Of a stretch of 64,000 nt of DNA, positions 50,931 through 63,762 are shown piece after piece. The stretch comes from Ascidiella aspersa (lineage: Eukaryota). A program made the translations under genes and the position numbers. How positions within the stretch are numbered: the first letter of the stretch is position 1; every line of letters begins with the position of its first letter. The notes under the pieces were generated by a model. It saw nothing but the letters and a program-made list of their open reading frames with translations. It searched no databases and was not told the DNA's origin. The DNA is taken from the NCBI GenBank assembly GCA_963924565.1, contig OZ004609.1, positions 28,830,001 through 28,894,000 on the forward strand, read 5' to 3'.

Positions 50931-51983
50931 TTACAGCTTTACAATTTGTTTGCCAGTATTGCAGCCATTCATCATATCAATAAAAGCCTGACCACCATTC
51001 TCCAAGCCATGCACAAAATTTTCAGGAGAAACTATTTTCCCTGCTTCATAAATTTCCCTCAAGTATGTCAGTGTCTTTTCAAATTTATTGGGGTAGTTTA
51101 AAACTAGGAATCTGTCTCTAGATATTTTACGGCTTTCTATGATAGATTGGATTTCATTTTTTATAGGTGGTGGATATGGCACATCTTTGTTGTACACAGA
51201 TATTTGGCCGCACAGGATAACCTGAGAATTTGGGTTCATCTGCCTTATAACGGCATTGCTGATTTCTCCTCCAACATTGTCGAAGTATATATCAATACCT
51301 TGGGGACATTTTTCTTTGAGTTTCACTGCTACATCTTGGGTTTTGTAGCAGATGGCTGCATCAAACTGCAGCTTTTCACATAAAAATTCGCATTTCTTTT
51401 CTGACCCAGTAATACCAATCACTTTTTTGCAACCTTGCAGTTTAGCAAGCTGACCCGCTGTTGTGCCACATGCTCCAGCTGCTGCACTAATTACCATTAC
51501 TTGGTTGGCATCTGCAACTATGTTGCACATTTCTGAGATTCCTAAGGCAGCTGTTAGTCCAGTTACACCAAAAATTCCTAAAGCCAGGGAAGCATTTTCA
51601 GGCATGAGGCTATGCAATTTCTGCACACTTTTAGCATTAAGATTATTAAGAGTTTGCCAGGGCCACTCTAACCCAGCTGATGAAACTAAATCACCTTCAT
51701 TAATGCCGGCAGCACAGCTTTTAATCACTATACCAACCCCAGACCCAGAGATTGTGTCGCCAAGTTTCCACGCTGGAGCGTAATCAACACCACTGTCCTC
51801 ATTCATTCTGCATCGCATGTATGGGTCCACACTCAAATACAATGTTTCCAGTAAGACTTCACCTTGTCTTGGATTTGGAGGGGATGAAATGCTCTCACAA
51901 CAAAAGTTAGACACTGTTGGCTGCCCATTTACTCCAGGTCTTGAAGACAGATAAACTCGTTTGTTCATTTTTATATTTTGCAT
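50931..51983 (-). CDS. PTGR2: Prostaglandin reductase 2 (MDR-family NADP-dependent oxidoreductase), 350 aa, uninterrupted CDS
   Basis: TLYLSVDPYMRCRMNED, SAAAGACG, YFDNVGG, LCGQISVYNKDVPYPPP and RFLVLNY match PTGR2; ATG at 51983 just after a splice acceptor (the listed ORF start at 52073 is a TTG). Confidence 0.95.
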   Translation of the reverse strand: MQNIKMNKRVYLSSRPGVNGQPTVSNFCCESISSPPNPRQGEVLLETLYLSVDPYMRCRMNEDSGVDYAPAWKLGDTISGSGVGIVIKSCAAGINEGDLVSSAGLEWPWQTLNNLNAKSVQKLHSLMPENASLALGIFGVTGLTAALGISEMCNIVADANQVMVISAAAGACGTTAGQLAKLQGCKKVIGITGSEKKCEFLCEKLQFDAAICYKTQDVAVKLKEKCPQGIDIYFDNVGGEISNAVIRQMNPNSQVILCGQISVYNKDVPYPPPIKNEIQSIIESRKISRDRFLVLNYPNKFEKTLTYLREIYEAGKIVSPENFVHGLENGGQAFIDMMNGCNTGKQIVKL

Positions 51984-52002
51984 GGTTTTCAAGAGTTTCA
52001 AG

Positions 52003-52050
52003 CTAAAAAAAGGCAATACGAAGGGTAAAACAGAAAAAAACAAGGAACAA
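52003..52050 (-). promoter_or_regulatory. Strong 3' splice acceptor (cis or SL trans-splice) for PTGR2, lying in the FAM162-like 3' UTR
   Basis: Minus strand: ttgttccttgtttttttctgttttacccttcgtattgcctttttttag|cttgaaactcttgaaaaccATG. Confidence 0.7.
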
Positions 52051-52079
52051 TATAAATAATTATTATTACTCAAAAACGT

Positions 52080-52574
52080 TTATTCACTCGGTTTGGTTTC
52101 ATTTTTGCTTTGACGATAAACATAAATTACAATACCAACACCAGTTAAACAAAACAGAGTAAGCGCATAATCAGTGGTCATTGTCATCTTAAATCCTTTG
52201 TCCATGATTTCTGCCTTTACCGCATCTTTTTCTTTTTGACCTATTTGAACGGTTTTATACACAATTTCATTGGGCACGTCTTTAATGCTTTTATACTTGC
52301 CAAGCCTAACCAAAATCCATTTGTCAAACCAATGAAGTTTTCTGTGACGCACTTTGCCTTCTTTCTCCTCTTGCCGTTGTTTATTGATTATTTGACGGAC
52401 AGTTGATGTTGGCTTTGCCACTTTCTCCGTGACAACATGGGGGGTTGCATCACCCAGCGCTGGGCGAAATTTTTTTATTGTATCGGTGGTTACTTTGCCG
52501 CCTGATGCATATTGGCAAACACTGTAGTTTAAAGGTTTCTTCACCCTAATACTATAAAATATATTTTTTAACAT
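52080..52574 (-). CDS. FAM162: FAM162/DUF1075-like small mitochondrial membrane protein, 164 aa
   Basis: FDKWILVRLGKYKSIKDVPNEI resembles FAM162 WQKKILIWSGRFKKEDEIPETV; C-terminal TM YALTLFCLTGVGIVIYVY; basic presequence-like N-terminus. Confidence 0.65.
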   Translation of the reverse strand: MLKNIFYSIRVKKPLNYSVCQYASGGKVTTDTIKKFRPALGDATPHVVTEKVAKPTSTVRQIINKQRQEEKEGKVRHRKLHWFDKWILVRLGKYKSIKDVPNEIVYKTVQIGQKEKDAVKAEIMDKGFKMTMTTDYALTLFCLTGVGIVIYVYRQSKNETKPSE

Positions 52575-53554
52575 GGCTTATACACAGTTTCATCAATCCT
52601 AAAAAATACAGTTGTTTTAAATAATTTTTACGCGATGTTTATTTGTCCCAAAATATACACTTATTTTAGTGTTATAAAAAATATTAAAATCATACTCCAA
52701 TTGAAGATTGTAACTAATATACTCACACAATAATATTTCACTGTTTACCAAACAGAGCATTTACCATTGAGGTTACAAAGAATATAAAGAAAAACAGGCA
52801 GTAATCTTCTTTAACCTATATAGTTTAATAGTTATAGTACTCATTTGTTAATAGAAACAACGATGTTAAAAAATAATTTAAACAGTTTCCTCCAACCTAG
52901 CAGTACTTTGGGCGCTGGTCAAGAATGCCACAAGTTGTTTATAAGTACTGAAAGGTAATTCTATTTCACTAAGTTCATTCTTCTGATAGTGCTAGAATAA
53001 CCCTTGTTTCAAAATTGAAGCATGGGTTCAGCAGTATTTTGCCCATTGCGTCATATGACATGGTTCAAAATCAGGACATAATATTTCACCGTCATTCAAA
53101 GTTCGTGATGTGTCACAAAAAAATCTGTGTTGATTTATAATTAAATGTACATTTTGTTTCAATCATATGCATTTCATGTCATTGTCATTTCGCCGAAACA
53201 ATTGTTTTCTATGTTTTTAATAACTTTTAAATATCAACTGAGGGAAATTACCTGAAACCACTGGTTTAGGAAAATTGATATAATGTTTATATTGCGTTGT
53301 AGCTTTTTTATAAAATATTTTATTAGCTACAAAAACCCACCTGATTTTTAAAAAAGATTATCATTTGCAATTACGCTTACTCAGTAGCAGGCGATTAGTA
53401 ATTGAGTGAGTAAAACTGTAGCATTATTCGAAACAACAATACTAAACATTCATCAGCAGTCAACATCCGATTCTTAATTTGGTTTGTTGCATAGCTTAGT
53501 AGGATCTACTTTTTATAGTAACCAAACGACTTGTCAAAATTGAAATTGCAAAGG

Positions 53555-54005
53555 AGAAATAAATATATTAATAATACTTGATCCACCTGAACCTAAATCC
53601 AAATAGAGTTATCAATATTATAAAGCCCCAGACGGAAAAATATTTTATGCCCACCAGAGTTTTGCCATTTCCCCGTGTTCAAATATTTTAAATCACAATT
53701 TTTCGGTTAGGGTGCGGTTTAACGTTTGGATGTTAGTGTTATATTTATTCTACCAGATCTATAGGTTGCAATTTTAGATTTGAGTTGGTTTTCCAACAAC
53801 AATTAAAAAAGTGGTATAGGATTCTAGACCTGTTGATGTTCAGGGATTTAAATAACTAATACCGTTTGGGTTAGTGTTTAAGTTTGGGCTTGGGTGGGTC
53901 AAGTATTATTATTTATTCTCCCATATTTATTTCTTCCTTGCAATTTCAATTGTAACAACTCGCTTAGTTACTGTCAAAAATTGTACGATTCTAGACCAGC
54001 CAGTC
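53555..54005. repeat. Degenerate fragments of the same palindromic MITE family as 63564-63762
   Basis: Shared motifs ggttagggtgcgg, ggtgggtcaagtatta, taataatacttgatccacc (inverted copy), ggattctagacc; a TIR-like ggcgctggtcaagaat also at 52911. Confidence 0.65.
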
Positions 54006-54583
54006 TGGAAATTTTGGCAGATCTCGACGAGATCTCGCAGTTGCACGACTGGAAAAATCCGGTAAAAAAGGTGAAAAGGGTGTACTTTATGATTTTCCTA
54101 TGCACTCGGTATGGCATCCATTGCACTGTAAATGTATGCCGCACAAGCGTTTTACATATTTGGGGTGTAGCTCAATTTTTTTTCGGGTGCACTTTAAAAC
54201 TCTTGGGTGCATTTGCCATATTTCCACAGTGTTAGACATCACCCAATACTTTACTGTTTGATAAATGGATAAAAAGTATATGACTTGCATTTTAGGGAAT
54301 GGTCCAATCGGTTTTGGTAGATTAACTGATTTTAAGATAATAACTGTGGAAGTTAGTATATTCAACCTCAAACTACTTTAGTATTATAGGAAGTTGTTTG
54401 ACTAACTTTCAGAATTTATGTGGAATTAAAAGCTCCTAAATTGCTTTATCAAAAATGGAGCACTCTAAAGACCCCTAACCTCATTTGTTGTCACTGTAAA
54501 TAGCCTCTTTCAATTATTTTTAATCTCGTAAATAACTTGTTCTTTATTAGCAGGTTAAACAGAAATATTTTTTGTGGTATAAG

Positions 54584-57500
54584 ATGAAACACAGCATTTC
54601 CAATGTAGATGCCCTTCGCTATCTTGCCTTGAAGCGTTGTTGTGGAAAATTAGGACGGTGCTCTGCCAATGAGAAAAATGTTGCTTACATCTGTGAACAG
54701 TACAGACAATCTGCTCGTTTTCGAGCGATGGTAGATAAAACTTTGCAAGAAGAACACAAGTGCAAAAAACAAACTTTGCCTGACAGTACGACAGACAGTA
54801 CAGCAGACAGGAAAAATTCAACAGAACAAGCAAGTAGAAACCATTTTGACAATTTAAAATCAGTAAATCAAGCTAATAACTCTTCACACAGTTCAAAGGG
54901 CAATGAATGTGTTTATTCACCAAACCCTACACTTTCACCAAAGAAACACAAAAGACATTATATTTCTGCTTCAGATATTGCCCGCTATTTAAAACTTGCA
55001 AATAAACCCGTTTCAAAAAGAAAAGGTTATGAGATGGTCAGATTTAAATACTCCTATTATGCTGAGTATAGAGCTTTGGTGGATGCCACCCTCTTAGCAG
55101 ACAAGGAAAAATCTACAAAACAATTAGTTGAGAATGATGTTCCTAAGAGCCCTGTCATTCCTCCTTTTACTAACAGCAACAATCAAGTTTCAAACCAAGA
55201 GAATACATGTTTAAACTCTTTGACAGTCAATGAGGAAATTCGAAACCATTTAAATAATTGTACTACCACAACCAACCCAAAACAATCTGAAAATTTTGAA
55301 GACCTTTCCCCTTCCTCACTTTCAAATAACAGCAAACAAATATCAAAAACAACTACAAAGCCATATATATCAGCATTTGACATTTACCGCTTTACAAGAT
55401 TAAAAATGAAATCATACTCCAAGCACAAGGGCTATACGAAAGTAAGATATAAATACTTGAATGATGCCCTATATCGGGAATTGGTGGATGCCACTTTAGC
55501 AGAATTGGATAAAAACAAAGAGGTAGAACACAAGGAGATGTCTGCAAATCAAGCCAGAAACACACTCCCTGAAGACCCTGTTGCTTCCTCGTTTACATAC
55601 AACAATCAAGAAGAGAACCAAGTTAATGCAACAAATGAAGAAAGCTTAATACCATCATCTAGTTTTGCTATTCAACAAACCCTTTTACAATCACAAGCTT
55701 TTGTAGACCTTAACCATTCTTCACTTTCTAATCCGAAAAAGCAGCGGTCAACAAAGACTAGAAAACATTTTATTTCCAGACCTGACGTTTTTCGGTATTT
55801 AAAACTAAAAAACATTCGTCGTTCAAAGGAAAAAAGTTATTTTAAGATTAGAGACAAATACAATAAGGATGCTGAATTTCGAGCTTCAGTTGATTCTATT
55901 CTCTTTGCAGACAGGGAGAAATCAGCAAAGCAAGTCAGTCAAACATGCCCTGAAGACTCTGTTACTTGCCCTATTTCAAATAACAATGAAGTAGAGAATC
56001 CGGTTAATAATTTGCAGTCTTGTGCAACAGATGAAGAAAGCTTAATACCATCATCTAGTTTTGCTGTTCAACAAACCCTTTTACAATCACAAGCTTTTGT
56101 AGACCTTAACCATTCTTTAATTTCTAATCCAAACAAGCAGCGGTCAACCAAGACTAGAAAACACTTTATTTCCAGACCTGACGTTTTTCGGTATTTAAAA
56201 CTAAAAAACATTCGTCGTTCAAAGGAAAAAAGTTATTTTAAGATCAGAGACAAATATAATAAAGATGCTGAGTTTCGAGCTTCAGTTGATTCTACTCTCT
56301 TTGCAGACAGGGAAAAATCAGCAAAGCAAGCCAGTCAAACAGGCCCTGAAGATTCTGTTACTTGCCGTATTTCCAGTAACAATAAAGTAGAGAATCCTGT
56401 TAACAACTTACAGTGTTTTGCAACAAATGAAGAAAGCTTAATATCATCCCCTAGTTGTGCAGCTCAACCTACCCATGCGCTATCAGACCTTGACCATTCT
56501 TTAATTTCAAATACCAGCGATCAAAGGTCTAGAATTACGAGAAAACACTTTATTTCGAAATCTGACGTTGCTCGGTATTTAAAACTGAGAAATATTAGTT
56601 GTTCAATTAAAAAGGGTTACCAAAAGATCACAGACAAATACAATAAGGATGCTGAGTTTCGGGCTTTAGTTGACGTCACTCTCTTAAAAGGCAATGATAA
56701 AGCATCAAAACAATCCAACATTAGATTCAGTTCATTGAATAAAAATAAAAAAATAATGGAACAAGGAAACGAACATAACTGTGATGTTTACCAGCTTCGC
56801 AACCGTGCTGCACCTAAAACAATTCAACCCATAACGAAAAACTTTTCAAACTTGGAAATTTCTCTTTTTGATATTTGTCAATACCTCATGTTAAAAAGGG
56901 GACCTACTTTCAAAGTTACTATTAGGCACATTGAGGACACCTTAAAGCGTTGCACAGAAGATAGAAATTTATGTGCTTTCGTTTCAAAAACAGTGCAAGA
57001 AAAAAAGTACCAAGCAAGTGATGATCCTTCAGAAAATAATTTTTTAACCAACAATCCAGTTCAAGCAAGCTTGGAGGATCCATCCTTGTTACACCCAGTC
57101 CCACCTGTTTCTGAAACTATTTCAGAAGATGAAACAATACATAAGTTTCGTAGAATCTCCCGTGCTAATGCTCGTCTTTATATTATGTTAAAATGTGGAA
57201 CAGCGGACAGAATATCTAGACAAAACATTGAACGGGTTCGGGCAAAATACCAGTCAGATGAAACGTATCGTAATGCTGTTTTGCATATGTTTCAGGATGT
57301 TGACGGCCAGGGAACAAATTGCTTCAATAGACTTTTGCAAGATGTGTCATTTCATTTGTTAGGTAAAGGCAAAGCCAACTCTGCAGCAAATTTGCAAGAA
57401 GTTGGACAAACTTTTCCTCTTAATGCGACAGTAAGTCCAATCTCAAAACAGCCAGACATTGAACAGCACCAAGTTGCAGCCCAGAGCAATGCTTCATCTT

Positions 57501-59368
57501 TTGCAGAACCAACATACAGTCCACCAAAGAAGAGGAGGAAAATTGTTCTTGAAATATCCAAGCACAACTCACCAACAAAGTTACAACAATCTAGTTTTAC
57601 TGGGACCCCTCAAACCATGGATATACTAAGTCAAGCAGTTGAAGTTTTAAACGTACCCGAGGCTAGCAGTTTTATGACTCTGCAGCCACATGGACAATTA
57701 CAACAACAAATAGAAGACGTTGAAGATTTAAGGCTTCCTGTCATTGATGATGGTCTGTCCAACGAAACCCCAGAGGTATCTGATGGTGAAGTTAGCCTTA
57801 CCCCAGAGGTATCTGATGGTGAAGTTACCCCTTACTATAGCCCCTCCAAAGAAAGCAGTCCTCAAATTGTGGAGATTGGTTTCAATGAAGTAGATGAACA
57901 AGCAAATCTAAACGACCTTGTCGATATGGATGCAAGTTACGCTCTGAACTCCACAAGTGAGTCAGCTGTAAACGAGTTGGATGACTGTCAAGTTAAGAAG
58001 AAAGTCGAAATTGACTATTTGGATGACAGACCAAAAGTATCATTGCTGGATTCTAGAATTAAGCATTGTGGCCTTAATGCAATGCGCAAAGTGCGTCGAA
58101 AAAGGACAATTCAAGGCGACGATAACGACTGCGAAGCGGTAACGCTGGATTGCCCTGCAGGCGGCACTTTTCAATTCCCCAGGGATGTCTGGGAGACGTG
58201 CAAGCGCTCCAGAGTCAGAAGGCAGTTCAAAGACGGCTCCTGGAGATCAGTCATTTTGAAGAACATAAAGTCCTTCAACCCAGTGTGTGCATTCATCTTC
58301 AACCGACACTATGTGTGCGATGCGAGAACGTACCGCAAGAATCGCCTCTCCCCTATGTTTTACTGCATGGGCTACTGCAATTTTTCTGTGTGCAGCAACG
58401 AGTTCCAGGTGAAGCTGAACGCGGACCTGACGGCACACGTGCAGTTTGTGGGCACTGTGCGGCACAAACCGCACGAGGACGTGGCGAACCGCCTCACTAC
58501 ACAGGAAAGAAGAGAGCTTAAGGAGATATTAAAAACGACAAGCGTCGAGGAGTACGAGAAATTCCGCATGGCCTCTCTTACGCCCGAGGAGATCGCGGTC
58601 GGAAACCGGAACGGCTGTCCAAGTCGAGACCTGCTAAATATGATCAGGAACCAGTCTTTGCGCGAGGTGCTGAAAGAAGCGAACAGACAACTGGTGGCCA
58701 CTATGGAAAGCGAAGGCCACGACTGGCCGGCTTTAGAGGGCAAAAAAGAACACCAACGCAAAAAATTTTTCCACAAACCGGATGAGAGCGAAGAAAGCGA
58801 CGACTCGGAACAAAACGAATCGTTTTTCAGGCACCCGACGCCCACCCAGGGGCGCTTCACCTTTTCCCGAGAGGTTTGGGAGCGTTGCAGAAGAACCAAA
58901 GACAAGCGGCGCTTAGTGACCAACGAGTGGGCGGTCGAGGTGCGGTCCAAGTTAAAGGAATTGAACAACATGTGCTCCTTCTGCTTCACCTGTCACTTCG
59001 TTCGAAGAGAAGACAGCCAGCGACCGGCACAGGCACCACTGCTTACCTGCACCGGCTACTGTCGCTTCCCAACCTGCTCGGTGCGCTTCCACGTCGCGGT
59101 CGATCACCAGCTGGAAGCCTTCGTCAGGTTTAAAGGCCGACTCAAGCACCGGAGGAACGAAACGTATATGCACTGCATCCGGGGTGTGGAGAGGGATCGG
59201 CTCCGTCAGATCCTAATGACCACCAGCGTCACCGACTACTACAACGAGCAGCTGAAAAAGCTGACGCAGAAGGAGATCGACAGTGGCTGCCGCGATCGCT
59301 GTCCTTCCAAGGTTGTTTTAAAGCAAATCAGAGCCGAGTCGATTCGATTGATGAAAGAACAGCGGTGA
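54584..59368 (+). CDS. Uncharacterised 1594-aa probable nuclear DNA-binding protein: 8 novel ~50-aa repeats, NLS, 2 transposase-derived Cys/His domains
   Basis: 4.8-kb uninterrupted ORF preceded by acceptor tctttattagcag (54553); first ATG 54584; PPKKRRKIV at 57521-57547; AATAAA about 50 nt after the stop. Confidence 0.85.
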   Translation: MKHSISNVDALRYLALKRCCGKLGRCSANEKNVAYICEQYRQSARFRAMVDKTLQEEHKCKKQTLPDSTTDSTADRKNSTEQASRNHFDNLKSVNQANNSSHSSKGNECVYSPNPTLSPKKHKRHYISASDIARYLKLANKPVSKRKGYEMVRFKYSYYAEYRALVDATLLADKEKSTKQLVENDVPKSPVIPPFTNSNNQVSNQENTCLNSLTVNEEIRNHLNNCTTTTNPKQSENFEDLSPSSLSNNSKQISKTTTKPYISAFDIYRFTRLKMKSYSKHKGYTKVRYKYLNDALYRELVDATLAELDKNKEVEHKEMSANQARNTLPEDPVASSFTYNNQEENQVNATNEESLIPSSSFAIQQTLLQSQAFVDLNHSSLSNPKKQRSTKTRKHFISRPDVFRYLKLKNIRRSKEKSYFKIRDKYNKDAEFRASVDSILFADREKSAKQVSQTCPEDSVTCPISNNNEVENPVNNLQSCATDEESLIPSSSFAVQQTLLQSQAFVDLNHSLISNPNKQRSTKTRKHFISRPDVFRYLKLKNIRRSKEKSYFKIRDKYNKDAEFRASVDSTLFADREKSAKQASQTGPEDSVTCRISSNNKVENPVNNLQCFATNEESLISSPSCAAQPTHALSDLDHSLISNTSDQRSRITRKHFISKSDVARYLKLRNISCSIKKGYQKITDKYNKDAEFRALVDVTLLKGNDKASKQSNIRFSSLNKNKKIMEQGNEHNCDVYQLRNRAAPKTIQPITKNFSNLEISLFDICQYLMLKRGPTFKVTIRHIEDTLKRCTEDRNLCAFVSKTVQEKKYQASDDPSENNFLTNNPVQASLEDPSLLHPVPPVSETISEDETIHKFRRISRANARLYIMLKCGTADRISRQNIERVRAKYQSDETYRNAVLHMFQDVDGQGTNCFNRLLQDVSFHLLGKGKANSAANLQEVGQTFPLNATVSPISKQPDIEQHQVAAQSNASSFAEPTYSPPKKRRKIVLEISKHNSPTKLQQSSFTGTPQTMDILSQAVEVLNVPEASSFMTLQPHGQLQQQIEDVEDLRLPVIDDGLSNETPEVSDGEVSLTPEVSDGEVTPYYSPSKESSPQIVEIGFNEVDEQANLNDLVDMDASYALNSTSESAVNELDDCQVKKKVEIDYLDDRPKVSLLDSRIKHCGLNAMRKVRRKRTIQGDDNDCEAVTLDCPAGGTFQFPRDVWETCKRSRVRRQFKDGSWRSVILKNIKSFNPVCAFIFNRHYVCDARTYRKNRLSPMFYCMGYCNFSVCSNEFQVKLNADLTAHVQFVGTVRHKPHEDVANRLTTQERRELKEILKTTSVEEYEKFRMASLTPEEIAVGNRNGCPSRDLLNMIRNQSLREVLKEANRQLVATMESEGHDWPALEGKKEHQRKKFFHKPDESEESDDSEQNESFFRHPTPTQGRFTFSREVWERCRRTKDKRRLVTNEWAVEVRSKLKELNNMCSFCFTCHFVRREDSQRPAQAPLLTCTGYCRFPTCSVRFHVAVDHQLEAFVRFKGRLKHRRNETYMHCIRGVERDRLRQILMTTSVTDYYNEQLKKLTQKEIDSGCRDRCPSKVVLKQIRAESIRLMKEQR
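55627..56690 (+). repeat. In-frame 396-bp (132-aa) tandem repeat, ~2.7 copies, inside the large ORF
   Basis: tgcaaca(a/g)atgaagaaagcttaata at 55627, 56023 and 56419; copies 1 and 2 nearly identical. Confidence 0.92.
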
Positions 59369-60050
59369 CATTGGGATGTGTACGGCGGCCCGTTTGCCCG
59401 TTTGTTTCTATTACTTTAATAAAACGCACCAATTGTCGCATTGCTTGATATAAGGCTGTCGAAAACAAGACTCCGTTTGTACATCGTGTGTTTCGCACAG
59501 TATTGTGTGAACTGTTTACGTTTTCATTAGTAGTCACGCTATTTCCTTAACCGTACTCCACATCTTGCGCTACCTTATGTGTGAAGTACAGTAATCGTGT
59601 TGCCGTGTCATGTTTTTTTGCCGTGCGATTTTACGTATTAAAAATACGATGTGAAATTGTGTAAGTTTTAGACTGGGTTGCCGAGAGCAGCGTCGGGTCA
59701 AGAGGCTAAGATCTTTATAGGCAAACAACAAAACAGCTCTAAAGTTGAAAATTGGCCATGTTCATAACTCTGCGAGAAACTGCATAGAAGTCACAATTTT
59801 TCAATTTGCCCATATCACGTATGTTCAGCCAACTTGCGGAAGTATGAGATATTGTGTTTATTTCTGTTTCATGGTCTATGACTTTTTGTGAGAAGGCATA
59901 TGTGTATAAATTTTGCTTCACTAAATATAGCCCAATCCTCGAAAAATGATAGGATCATACAATTCATCTAAAATTTGAATAAATCAGACAAAAAACGAGA
60001 CAATCCCTTTAAGTACATCACCCATCAACCAAAAACGACTCGCCTAAAGG

Positions 60051-60713: not shown

Positions 60714-62890
60714 CCCAGCTAACACACAACGTTTTTTCGACGTTCGGATCTTTTTTTTAAACTAAGTAAACGTTGTGGGAATGTGTCCAAACGAACGTTA
60801 AGAAAATACGTCGAGGCCGTATTATCAAAACGTAATGTAAAACGTTGCACTAACGTCAAAATTAACGTTAAGAAAAACCGCAATGCGACCAAATTTCAAC
60901 GTCATTTGTAACGTATAAACAACGTTGATTACAGACGTCGATCTTAACATGTTTTACATCATTTTGGACGTCACTTCGAACGTTTGTTGAACGTTATTTT
61001 TTAACGTTGCGACGAACCACAATGAAACAAATTTACAACGTCATAGGTGACATGCAAATAACGTTTATTACTGACGTAAAATCTAACATTTTTAGACCGG
61101 TTTAGACGTCTTTTACACGTTTAATTAACGCTGTATATTTAACGTTCCGTAAAACTATAACGAAACAACTTAGAACGTCATACGTGACGTAGAATTCACG
61201 TTCATTTCTGACGTCACAATTAACTTGTTATAGACAAATTTTAACGTAACTTCAAACGTTTGATTAACGTTCTTTCGTAACGTTGAAACAAACCAAATAC
61301 AACTTATTTTAAAACGTCATAAATCACGTACTAAAACGTTGTTTACTGACGTCAAAACTAACGTCTTTTTTTTTTTTTCAATTCAATGGTATTCTTTAAA
61401 AATATTGTGGCGCACCACAATGTAACCTGATTATAACGTCAAAGGTGACGTACGAACAAGGTTAATTACTTACTTCGAGGCTAATAACTTGTTTTAGGCT
61501 ATTTTGTACGTCAGAGCGAACATTTTGCTAACATTATTTTTAAACTTTGTGACCACCATTGATGTAACTAATTTACAACGTGATACGTGACGTACAAACA
61601 ACATTAAATTCTGACATCAAAGCTAATTTCTTGGAGACCAGGACGCCATTTTAAGCGTTATAATAACGTCATTTTACCGTTTTGACTAACTACAATGTTA
61701 TATAATTAAAACGTAAAACGTGACGTAACAACAACGTTACCTTTTGTAACAAGGATAATTTTTTTATGACTATTTTATACATCATTTCTAACGTTTTAAT
61801 AACGTCATTTCTCAACCTTATTGCAAACCTTAATGTAACCAATTTAGAACGTCATAGGTGACGTACATGCAACGTTAATTACTCACGTCAAAGTAAACTT
61901 GATTTCATTTCATACGTTGTCGTGAGAAACCACAATGGACCCAATTTATTAAATCCTACGTGACGTACAATCAACGGTGATTTCTGACGTCAAAGCTAAC
62001 TTATTTAAGACCGTTTTGGATGTAATTTTAAACGTTTTAATAACGTTATTTCTTGACGTTGCGACAAACTAAGATCCAACTAACTGACAACGTCACGCGT
62101 GACGTATAAATGACGTTGAATTCCAAGGTCAAAGCTAACTTCTTTGACAGCATTTTGGACGTGATTTTAAGCGTTTTAACAACGTTATTTTTTGGTTTGT
62201 AACTAACAACAATGCAATCTAATTAGAACTTCACGTGACGTAAAAACTACGGTAAATACTGACATCGAAGCTTACTTGTGTTTAGAATTAGACTATTTTA
62301 TACGTCATTTTTAACGTTAATATGACGTTATTTTTCAACGTTATTACAATCTTCAATATAACCAATTCAAAACATCCTACGTGGCCTATATGCAAAAAGC
62401 AATGATAACTGTCGCTGAAGATAACTTATTTGAAACCATTTTAAATGCTATTTTCAAAAGTTCCAATAACTTTATTTCTTGACATTACGAAAAACTAAAA
62501 CGCGACCAAATTTGCAACATCTTGAATGATCGTAGTCATTTCGAAGGTTACGGCAAACCACAATGCAACCGGATTAAAACGTTAAACGTGACCTATACAA
62601 CAAGGTATATACCTGACATCGAGGTCAACTTGTTTTAGACTATTTTATACATAAATTAAAACATTTCATTAATATTGTTTAGCGTTTTTACAAACGTCAA
62701 AGGAACCCTATTAAAACGTTAAACGTGAGGTAGAAACAACATCAATTAGCCTACTTACGTTGAAGGTAACTGATTTTAGACGAATTTCCGTGTCATACAC
62801 AGTTTTTTCGACTGAGCTGAAGTACAATCGAATCAAAATGTCATACGTGTCGTATAAAAAACGTTGTTTACCGACGTCAAAACTAACTTT
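60714..62890. repeat. ACGT-rich tandem array, ~138-bp unit, ~16 diverged copies, starting with a CCCAGCTAAC terminus (CMC/EnSpm-like subterminal array)
   Basis: Anchor aacgtcat.cgtgacgta near 60901, 61040, 61177, 61316, 61438, 61580, 61713, 61851, ~61953, 62092, ~62230, ~62374, 62581, 62718, 62840. Confidence 0.85.
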
Positions 62891-63563
62891 CCAAGTTTTA
62901 ATTTTCGTTAAATAGAAATGCTCTCTTTTAAGGAATGCGTCGGGATTATGTAGCCTATGTACAAAATATTTGTTTTTTTCTGTAATGTGTTTTGATTAAC
63001 TTTTTTAGAATATGTAAAGAAGTATACTTAGTTATGCTTACATAAAATAGAGATGTGACTTAATTTAAGATAGCATTTTAGTAACATTGTCTTTATATGA
63101 AACAAATCGCATAAAAAAGTACTTAGCGCAGCGACCGCTACAGACGCAGTTTCCTGGATAGACAAGAATGTCGCTCCCTGCTGCTTTTTTTTCGCGGATT
63201 TCGAACGGCGCGTAAACTCGTGATTGGCCAATATGCGGATGACATCACAGTCCAGTTTGAACATTTGCTATCAGTCAGGACATTGGAATTCAAAATAAGT
63301 TTTGGCAGCTCAGCGCTAGAGTGCTTGTTAGATATTTAGGTTGTTTTCCTTAAACCATGAAGATTAGGGTTACATAAAAAGATTAGGCTTTGTTATCAAA
63401 TATATTTTCAGGTTAAATAGTCTAAGCTGTATTTGTAGTTTTATTTATAACTTTTATTTTAAGTAGGAAACAAAATAATTTACTGATTGAATGACTTCAA
63501 AGCCTCCACTAATTTTCATCTAACATAGAAAAACAAGCTCTATTACCTCTGTGGGCAATTGCA

Positions 63564-63762
63564 GGCACTGGTCTAGAATCCTACCACACAGTGCACAATA
63601 TTTGGGTTAGGGTGCGGGTTAGCATTTTGGATTAGGGTGGGTCAAGTATTAAATAATAGATATAATAATACTTCACCCACCCTCACTCAAACGCTAACTC
63701 GCACCCTAACCCAAATATTGTGCGTTGATTTAATCAATGTGGTAGGATTCTAGACCAGCGCC
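63564..63762. mobile_element. Palindromic (foldback-like) MITE with 8-bp TSD, possibly Merlin-type
   Basis: Ends GGCACTGGTCTAGAATCCTACCACA ... TGTGGTAGGATTCTAGACCAGCGCC; inner arms gcacaatatttgggttagggtgcgggttagc / gctaactcgcaccctaacccaaatattgtgc; perfect TSD CAATTGCA (63556-63563, 63763-63770). Confidence 0.88.

Follow-up and report, generated by a model that had tools for sequence, protein, structure and literature searches.

The DNA-binding domains of MULE transposases belong to the WRKY-GCM1 class and recur as stand-alone factors, among them yeast Aft2p/Rcs1p, GCM1 and FLYWCH, in which, in the portion of the survey available to us, the WRKY-like N-terminal domain of a transposase is kept in a single-copy gene without the catalytic domain (PMC1702500). 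Human FLYWCH1 likewise carries a Mutator-derived fold in a host protein and, in the available excerpts of two reports, is linked to silencing of repeats (PMC11970373; PMC10027918). Spm TnpA, as outlined in the accessible part of a preprint, represents the DNA-binding part of a transposase split from its catalytic core and turned into a regulator, with tandem three-helix motifs and disordered linkers, and the same part describes domesticated MuDR genes as keeping a degenerate DDE domain (bioRxiv 10.64898/2026.08.24.746577). Among the mobile elements, Rehavkus is a MULE-related group listed, in the available section of its description, solely from arthropods and annelids (PMC6446971).

The window considered here, a 64,000-nt stretch of the Ascidiella aspersa genome, carries a gene, P0001, that is best read as a domesticated transposase-derived gene without catalytic core or element ends (Table 1). 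P0001 appears to agree with the stand-alone WRKY-GCM1 proteins in the features named above, but it has two tandem domains predicted to be of this type, with an invariant C-H-C-C-H set, plus eight helical modules, and no helical module of this kind is described in the available portion of Babu et al. 2006 (PMC1702500). From FLYWCH1 it differs in having no FLYWCH Pfam match and in that the amplified unit is a helical module and not a zinc finger. Spm TnpA may be regarded as the closest functional analogue among the systems compared, although it is a transposon-encoded plant protein of another superfamily with two HTH motifs; the DDE domain that domesticated MuDR genes retain is wholly absent from P0001. 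Rehavkus elements, the likely donor type, are mobile, whereas P0001 is not.

Table 1. Parts of P0001 and its immediate flanks, in positions of the window.
Feature	Residues (aa)	Position	Strand	Remarks	Basis
Pyrimidine-rich tract ending in CAG		54541..54553	+	30 nt 5' of ATG	sequence
Intronless ORF P0001		54584..59368	+	8 helical modules, acidic linker, 2 WRKY-GCM1-like domains; DDE core absent	
Repeat 1	2-55	54587..54748	+	loop longer by 6 aa	repeat HMM
Repeat 2	124-171	54953..55096	+	copy modelled, three helices predicted	repeat HMM, AlphaFold2
Repeat 3	259-306	55358..55501	+		repeat HMM
Repeat 4	394-441	55763..55906	+		repeat HMM
Repeat 5	526-573	56159..56302	+	youngest duplication, 396 nt from repeat 4	
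Repeat 6	654-701	56543..56686	+		repeat HMM
Repeat 7	756-807	56849..57004	+	most diverged copy; alone unmatched by transposase-module HMM	
Repeat 8	855-906	57146..57301	+	diverged; best single match to transposase-module HMM	
Acidic Ser/Pro/Gln-rich linker	907-1185	57302..58138	+	net charge -18	
PPKKRRK motif		57521..57541	+		sequence
WRKY-GCM1-like domain 1 + helical tail		58151..58672	+	C, H, C, C, H invariant, common to transposases	
WRKY-GCM1-like domain 2		58832..59365	+	35% identical to domain 1	
AATAAA		59418..59423	+	50 nt 3' of stop codon	

The gene is one stop-free frame of 1,594 aa. Judging by its sequence, the pyrimidine-rich tract upstream of the start codon is likely a splice or trans-splice acceptor, and comparable acceptor-like sites also lie 5' of neighbouring genes; the downstream AATAAA is, in the same way, the likely poly(A) signal. 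The acidic linker may possibly act as an effector region, and the PPKKRRK motif resembles a classical nuclear localisation signal. Composition changes sharply inside the ORF at about 58050, with GC3 of 0.29-0.33 before and 0.67 after and CpG o/e of 0.34-0.59 before and 1.07 after. The step may mark the border of a methylation domain or the junction of two fused pieces, and RNA depth falls 3' of it. The 3' untranslated part contains an 8-nt tandem duplication (about 59389-59404), which may account for the 8 gap letters found in each of the contigs of runs X2 and X3 in pieces spanning 58742-59548.

The original prediction held that this region encodes eight copies of a basic helical repeat, ranging from near-identical to highly diverged and separated by Ser/Asn/Gln-rich linkers, and this description stands: eight copies of a 48-54-aa unit lie in frame in the one ORF, within about 10 nt of the positions first proposed. 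Leave-one-out HMMs built from the copies recover every one of them, each held-out copy outscoring all 1,000 of its own shuffles (15.0-96.2 bits against shuffle maxima of 7.9-14.6), with the lowest scores for copies 7 and 8 (15.0 and 18.3 bits). Identity ranges from 98% between copies 4 and 5, which have 1 difference in 48 aa, down to 17-28% between copies 7 and 8 and the others. Every copy is basic, with net charges of +2 to +8 (copy 3 counted one residue off), and the linkers, 47-88 aa long, consist of Ser, Asn and Gln to 26-36%. Since the linkers of copies 2-6, which repeat in units of 384-405 nt, are homologous too, the array probably grew via in-frame duplication of module plus linker. Multi-copy architecture is also a feature of human FLYWCH1.

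AlphaFold2 modelling of copy 2 from an eight-row alignment places helices at residues 6-15, 24-35 and 37-51 (pLDDT 87 in the best of five models, 57-87 overall), and each repeat is predicted to form a three-helix module, as had been proposed. Helices 2 and 3 of the model stand one residue apart, unlike a typical HTH turn, and the predicted three helices found no known family with HTH geometry at significance in the PDB, Pfam, BFVD and VIA comparisons. With the complete protein, and with copies 2 and 4, Pfam gave no family at E<=1, and neither the PDB sequence search nor ESM Atlas (best 0.83) gave a significant match to the repeat. Structural searches with the repeat model ended similarly, with Foldseek best E values of 4.5 in PDB and 2.9 in BFVD, neither significant, and a best VIA Z of 4.3, none reaching 5. 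These blank searches mean no known family, in agreement with the earlier statement that none could be assigned; they do not mean a new fold. Three matches of the repeat profile among 1.84 billion representatives (E 9e-5 to 9e-4) were rejected, each being a sum of short partial stretches in unrelated tandem repeats.

Both C-terminal domains are predicted, from modelling, to adopt a WRKY-GCM1-like zinc-binding fold. Five Cys/His positions (C46, H53, C76, C81 and H105) are invariant in all 10 rows of an alignment that left out one small-clade row (L034). The usual WRKY-GCM1 ligand pattern is C-C-H-x-H/C; domain 1 has C-x4-C-x23-H, and the second His of H-x-H is not conserved. The host domain model reaches pLDDT 87 and retrieves WRKY or Aft2 chains at all of the Foldseek ranks 1-6, with a best E of 8.6e-3 (prob 0.99), short of E 0.001, while in VIA Aft2 scores Z 5.9 (rmsd 3.1, 73 aligned), tied with unrelated folds. 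Its Atlas neighbours include GCM, CaRF, ZSWIM3_N and FAR1 clusters (0.85-0.92). A search of its own genome with domain 1 (45 candidates scored) gives 31 places: domain 1 itself, domain 2, and 29 sites elsewhere that are 24-32% identical.

Fourteen stretches were fetched around such genome matches, and the long ORFs listed from them are transposases of two clades, about 1,230-1,320 aa and 2,300-2,900 aa long. By eye these ORFs show a D-D-CxxH-E pattern, which we take to be the catalytic DDE motif. Among those scanned, none matches Pfam MULE at E<=0.1, all four match Pfam PHD (two above the curated cut-off), and Ulp1-like or UCH domains are also present. Element ends, checked in six copies, are bordered by 9-bp target-site duplications in 4 of 4 small-clade copies and by 8-bp ones in 2 of 2 copies of the large clade, the one with the module discussed below. 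Small-clade inverted ends extend over about 730-1,900 bp and consist of 345-bp units in both copies scanned; large-clade ends are short and imperfect (ACCAT...ATGGT), with 21 copies of a 185-bp minisatellite unit in the copy scanned. Because related copies are 97-99% identical and their target-site duplications intact, the elements appear to have been recently active; their ORFs carry expanded tandem repeats. The protein database search with residues 296-1250 of a large transposase returned no match among 2,887 candidates, and of 7,998 candidates scored with the transposase core, one alone proved to be a relative, a Phallusia mammillata protein at 48% identity, which points to an ascidian as the probable host.

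The donor-type elements are alike to Rehavkus, as far as the available section describes it, in having one ORF, a PHD finger, a 3' minisatellite, terminal inverted repeats and 8-9-bp duplications, and they differ in the 8-bp duplications of the module-bearing clade and in the UCH domain of the L035 subfamily (PMC6446971). They fit the description except for the 8-bp duplication, and we call them Rehavkus-like. L059-L060, L069 (G000:C8) and L039, L061, L062 (G000:C1) are 14-20-kb Mutator-like elements that share 98-99% identity; their ORFs encode 2,300-2,850 aa, the duplications are 8 bp long, and the terminal minisatellite has a 185-bp unit. In the related L035 subfamily, two PHD fingers occur together with a ubiquitin-protease (UCH) domain. 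L031-L034 and L073-L078, 6.6-12 kb in length, are of the Foldback type: 345-bp units build up their long inverted ends, the duplications measure 9 bp, and Ulp1-like and PHD domains are present. These elements have an N-terminal helical module of their own, which L031 and L032 carry in duplicate. At L065:3-2852, two ORF pieces, which by their motifs resemble LTR-retrotransposon pol, adjoin a broken large-clade transposase.

The repeat very probably originates from a module of these transposases, as sequence comparison in both directions suggests. When the HMM of the eight copies was run against 20 long ORFs, a large transposase ranked first (E 2.8e-5), the matched part being one basic module of ~50 aa near the N-terminus, directly before the first PHD finger; among 3,368 ORF pieces of the fetched loci, the best non-self matches were the same module in two subfamilies (13-15 bits). 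Conversely, an HMM built from seven modules of related subfamilies, without host sequence, placed P0001 at the top of the 1,294 pieces from a six-frame translation of the window (E 1e-6, the runner-up at E 0.29), and 6 of 6 stretches matched lie inside the repeats. Scored singly with this HMM, repeats 1, 4, 5, 6 and 8 exceed all 1,000 shuffles and repeat 2 all but 2, and repeats 3 and 7 are not significant alone (33 and 280 of 1,000 shuffles); in the reverse direction every one of the seven transposase modules is reached by at most 1 of 1,000 shuffles, with reversed and shuffled controls negative. Profile-profile comparison of repeats and modules gives 87.6% (E 3.5e-6, 44 columns) with shallow profiles of Neff about 2.7, and two other basic helical modules of the same transposases, used as a control, show no match to the repeats (0.1% and 0.2%).

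The two sets follow a common pattern, with (Y/F)L-x-K in helix 1, an aromatic residue ending helix 2 (Y in the host, W in the transposases) and, in helix 3, D/N followed by (F/Y)R-x-x-V, whose Arg is present in 13 of 14 distinct modules (7 host, copy 5 omitted, and 7 transposase). The seven transposase modules are all basic as well (8-13 K/R vs 1-3 D/E). Pairwise identity between repeats and modules is 9-27%, so that the homology is remote and is supported by context. Both C-terminal domains match the next domain of the large transposases, and the order of repeat and C-terminal domain is the same, N to C, as in the transposase. Two other derivations were set aside. Profile comparisons lend no support to homology with either the small-clade N-terminal module or the module that lies further upstream in the large transposases (best 1.6%), and separate captures from different subfamilies are not supported by a tree of the eight repeats and seven modules, which groups the repeats together (89/90, unstarred). 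The suggestion that the array derives from the helical N-terminus of a transposase is therefore upheld by reciprocal profile matches to a module near that end, whereas the further claim, that this same transposase gave rise to the C-terminal domains, is less certain: the module occurs in the large clade, and the C-terminal domains, placed between the two clades, stand slightly nearer the small one.

Several observations concern the status of P0001 as a host gene. At the DNA level its repeat region occurs once in the genome, four protein queries of the same genome (top candidates scored) found no paralogue outside the gene, and tblastn with four transposases over the window plus 9.9 kb detected the two C-terminal domains alone and no DDE remnant. 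The ends of six elements match nothing flanking the gene, and no flanking inverted repeat pair was found among the 25 longest of 42. In all 9 bins across the ORF, RNA reaches a depth of 0.75-7.8 on the coding strand and 0 on the opposite one, in one run of which 6% was read at low depth; the polarity is the same as that of the + strand RGS7-like gene, and no reads of this low-depth sample join the 5' and 3' halves of the ORF. None of the outcomes that were to refute the original prediction arose: the repeat is predicted to be folded, matches no Pfam family and belongs to a transcribed ORF. Between repeat cores of copies 2-6, dN/dS is 0.05-0.44 in all 10 pairs, by a simple counting that is biased downward and compares internal copies within one species; for copies 4 and 5 the count is 5 synonymous against 1 non-synonymous change (P=0.0026). 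This agrees with the selection on a fold proposed at the outset, although the linkers also stay below 1 (0.34-0.74), so that constraint is not confined to the repeat cores. Between older copies dS exceeds 1. No orthologue emerged when residues 1-920 were compared with 5.8 billion proteins (0 matches among 7,245 candidates of 876-2,790 aa), nor with the repeat profile against the 1.84 billion representatives.

Taken together, a nuclear DNA-binding regulator without nuclease activity, composed of a WRKY-like pair, eight basic modules providing avidity and an acidic linker as effector, is the function we moderately favour. DNA-binding domains usually sit at the N-terminus of transposases, and this location, together with the charge of the repeat, suggests that it too may bind DNA. 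It may equally be asked whether, in a gene domesticated all the same, the repeats serve protein interaction or self-association, leaving DNA binding to the two WRKY-like domains alone, with the array as a cofactor scaffold. We consider this rather unlikely. In its favour, the searches single out no DNA-binding fold, HTH or other, for the repeat, the transposase module directly precedes a PHD finger, and it weakly matches Pfam CID, a helical peptide-binding domain, in 3 of 7 members (best E 0.017); but the CID match is indeed weak and falls outside the top 50 VIA rows for the repeat model, and modules that are basic throughout, with the nearly invariant Arg, speak for the nucleic-acid role.

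More basic doubts concern domestication and homology themselves. The absence of orthologues in protein searches, the recent activity of related elements with expanded tandem repeats in their ORFs, and the high-copy repeats flanking the gene would all suit a transposon remnant, non-autonomous and with an internal deletion, whose transcription is passive and which serves no function for the host. Such a remnant is very unlikely given a single-copy gene without matching ends, dN/dS below 1, strand-specific RNA, and a 4.8-kb open frame kept despite the low identity of its domains to extant elements and the high dS between older copies. Highly improbable, in turn, is a merely chance likeness of short basic amphipathic segments, with a transposase fragment joined to a repeat gene of other origin: low identity, shallow profiles and the GC3/CpG step, which suggests that the two halves may have had different histories, are compatible with it, but the reciprocal matches, the negative reversed, shuffled and control-module comparisons and the shared N-to-C order count against it. 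The step, combined with a module from the large clade and WRKY-like domains between the clades, does make a two-step fusion possible within the preferred reading of a domesticated transposase gene.

According to that reading, an old Mutator-like insertion would have lost its DDE core and ends, after which successive in-frame tandem duplications of module plus linker, in units of about 384-405 nt, would have amplified the module. The WRKY-like pair could then read a sequence motif, avidity on long or repeated DNA would be supplied by the eight basic modules with their flexible linkers, and transcription or chromatin factors might be recruited through the acidic linker. It is tempting to imagine that the host has turned the module with which the transposon reads its ends into a new family of DNA-binding domains, an eight-headed guard that would cover the 185-345-bp tandem arrays at the termini of still-active Mutator-like elements and silence or block these elements. 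The idea has its appeal, given that the element ends are made up of such arrays, and it would, if true, provide an invertebrate-chordate analogue of KRAB zinc-finger defence; both the guarding role and this origin of a domain family are nevertheless quite unlikely in our judgement, because the repeats group together, not with element subfamilies, and are far diverged.

Transposase domestication is already well known, which limits the surprise. Searches of the literature on domesticated transposase-derived genes of ascidians and Ciona, by title and the start of the abstract, found no description of this gene, and the module and architecture are undescribed in the literature searched; the list of domesticated MuDR genes in Data S1 of the bioRxiv preprint may bear on this. 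What the locus offers is a small protein module, unnamed in the libraries searched, that now has a place within the transposases of a little-studied group and has been amplified into an array in a host gene while donor-type transposons remain intact in the same genome. Two questions become testable: which part of the transposase reads the repeat-rich ends, and whether that part is reused by hosts, be it against the element or to control their own genes.

The surroundings of P0001 present several minor features. Positions 1-45000 are CpG-rich (o/e 1.26) and contain 12 ORFs of at least 150 aa without a Pfam match at E<=0.01. An intronless RGS7-like gene (48297-49733, +) has DEP, DHEX, GGL and RGS domains and an RNA depth of 17-20. 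Two intronless genes at 50931-52577 (-), FAM162-like (DUF1075) and PTGR2-like, stand head to tail 96 nt apart, with an AATAAA overlapping the first stop and a pyrimidine tract and AG just 5' of the second ATG; the pair looks like an operon of the Ciona type, as characterised in the available part of PMC2760879. Two related palindromic MITE-like elements lie on either side, at 53510-53979 and 63564-63762, with very high contig-run depth over the upstream one, and 60868-62900 is occupied by a diverged satellite in which ACGTGACGT occurs and whose units measure about 69 and 138 bp. Just past the end of the window, L068:243-420 matches the terminal 180 bp of a small-clade element at 78%, in left-end orientation and facing away from the gene.
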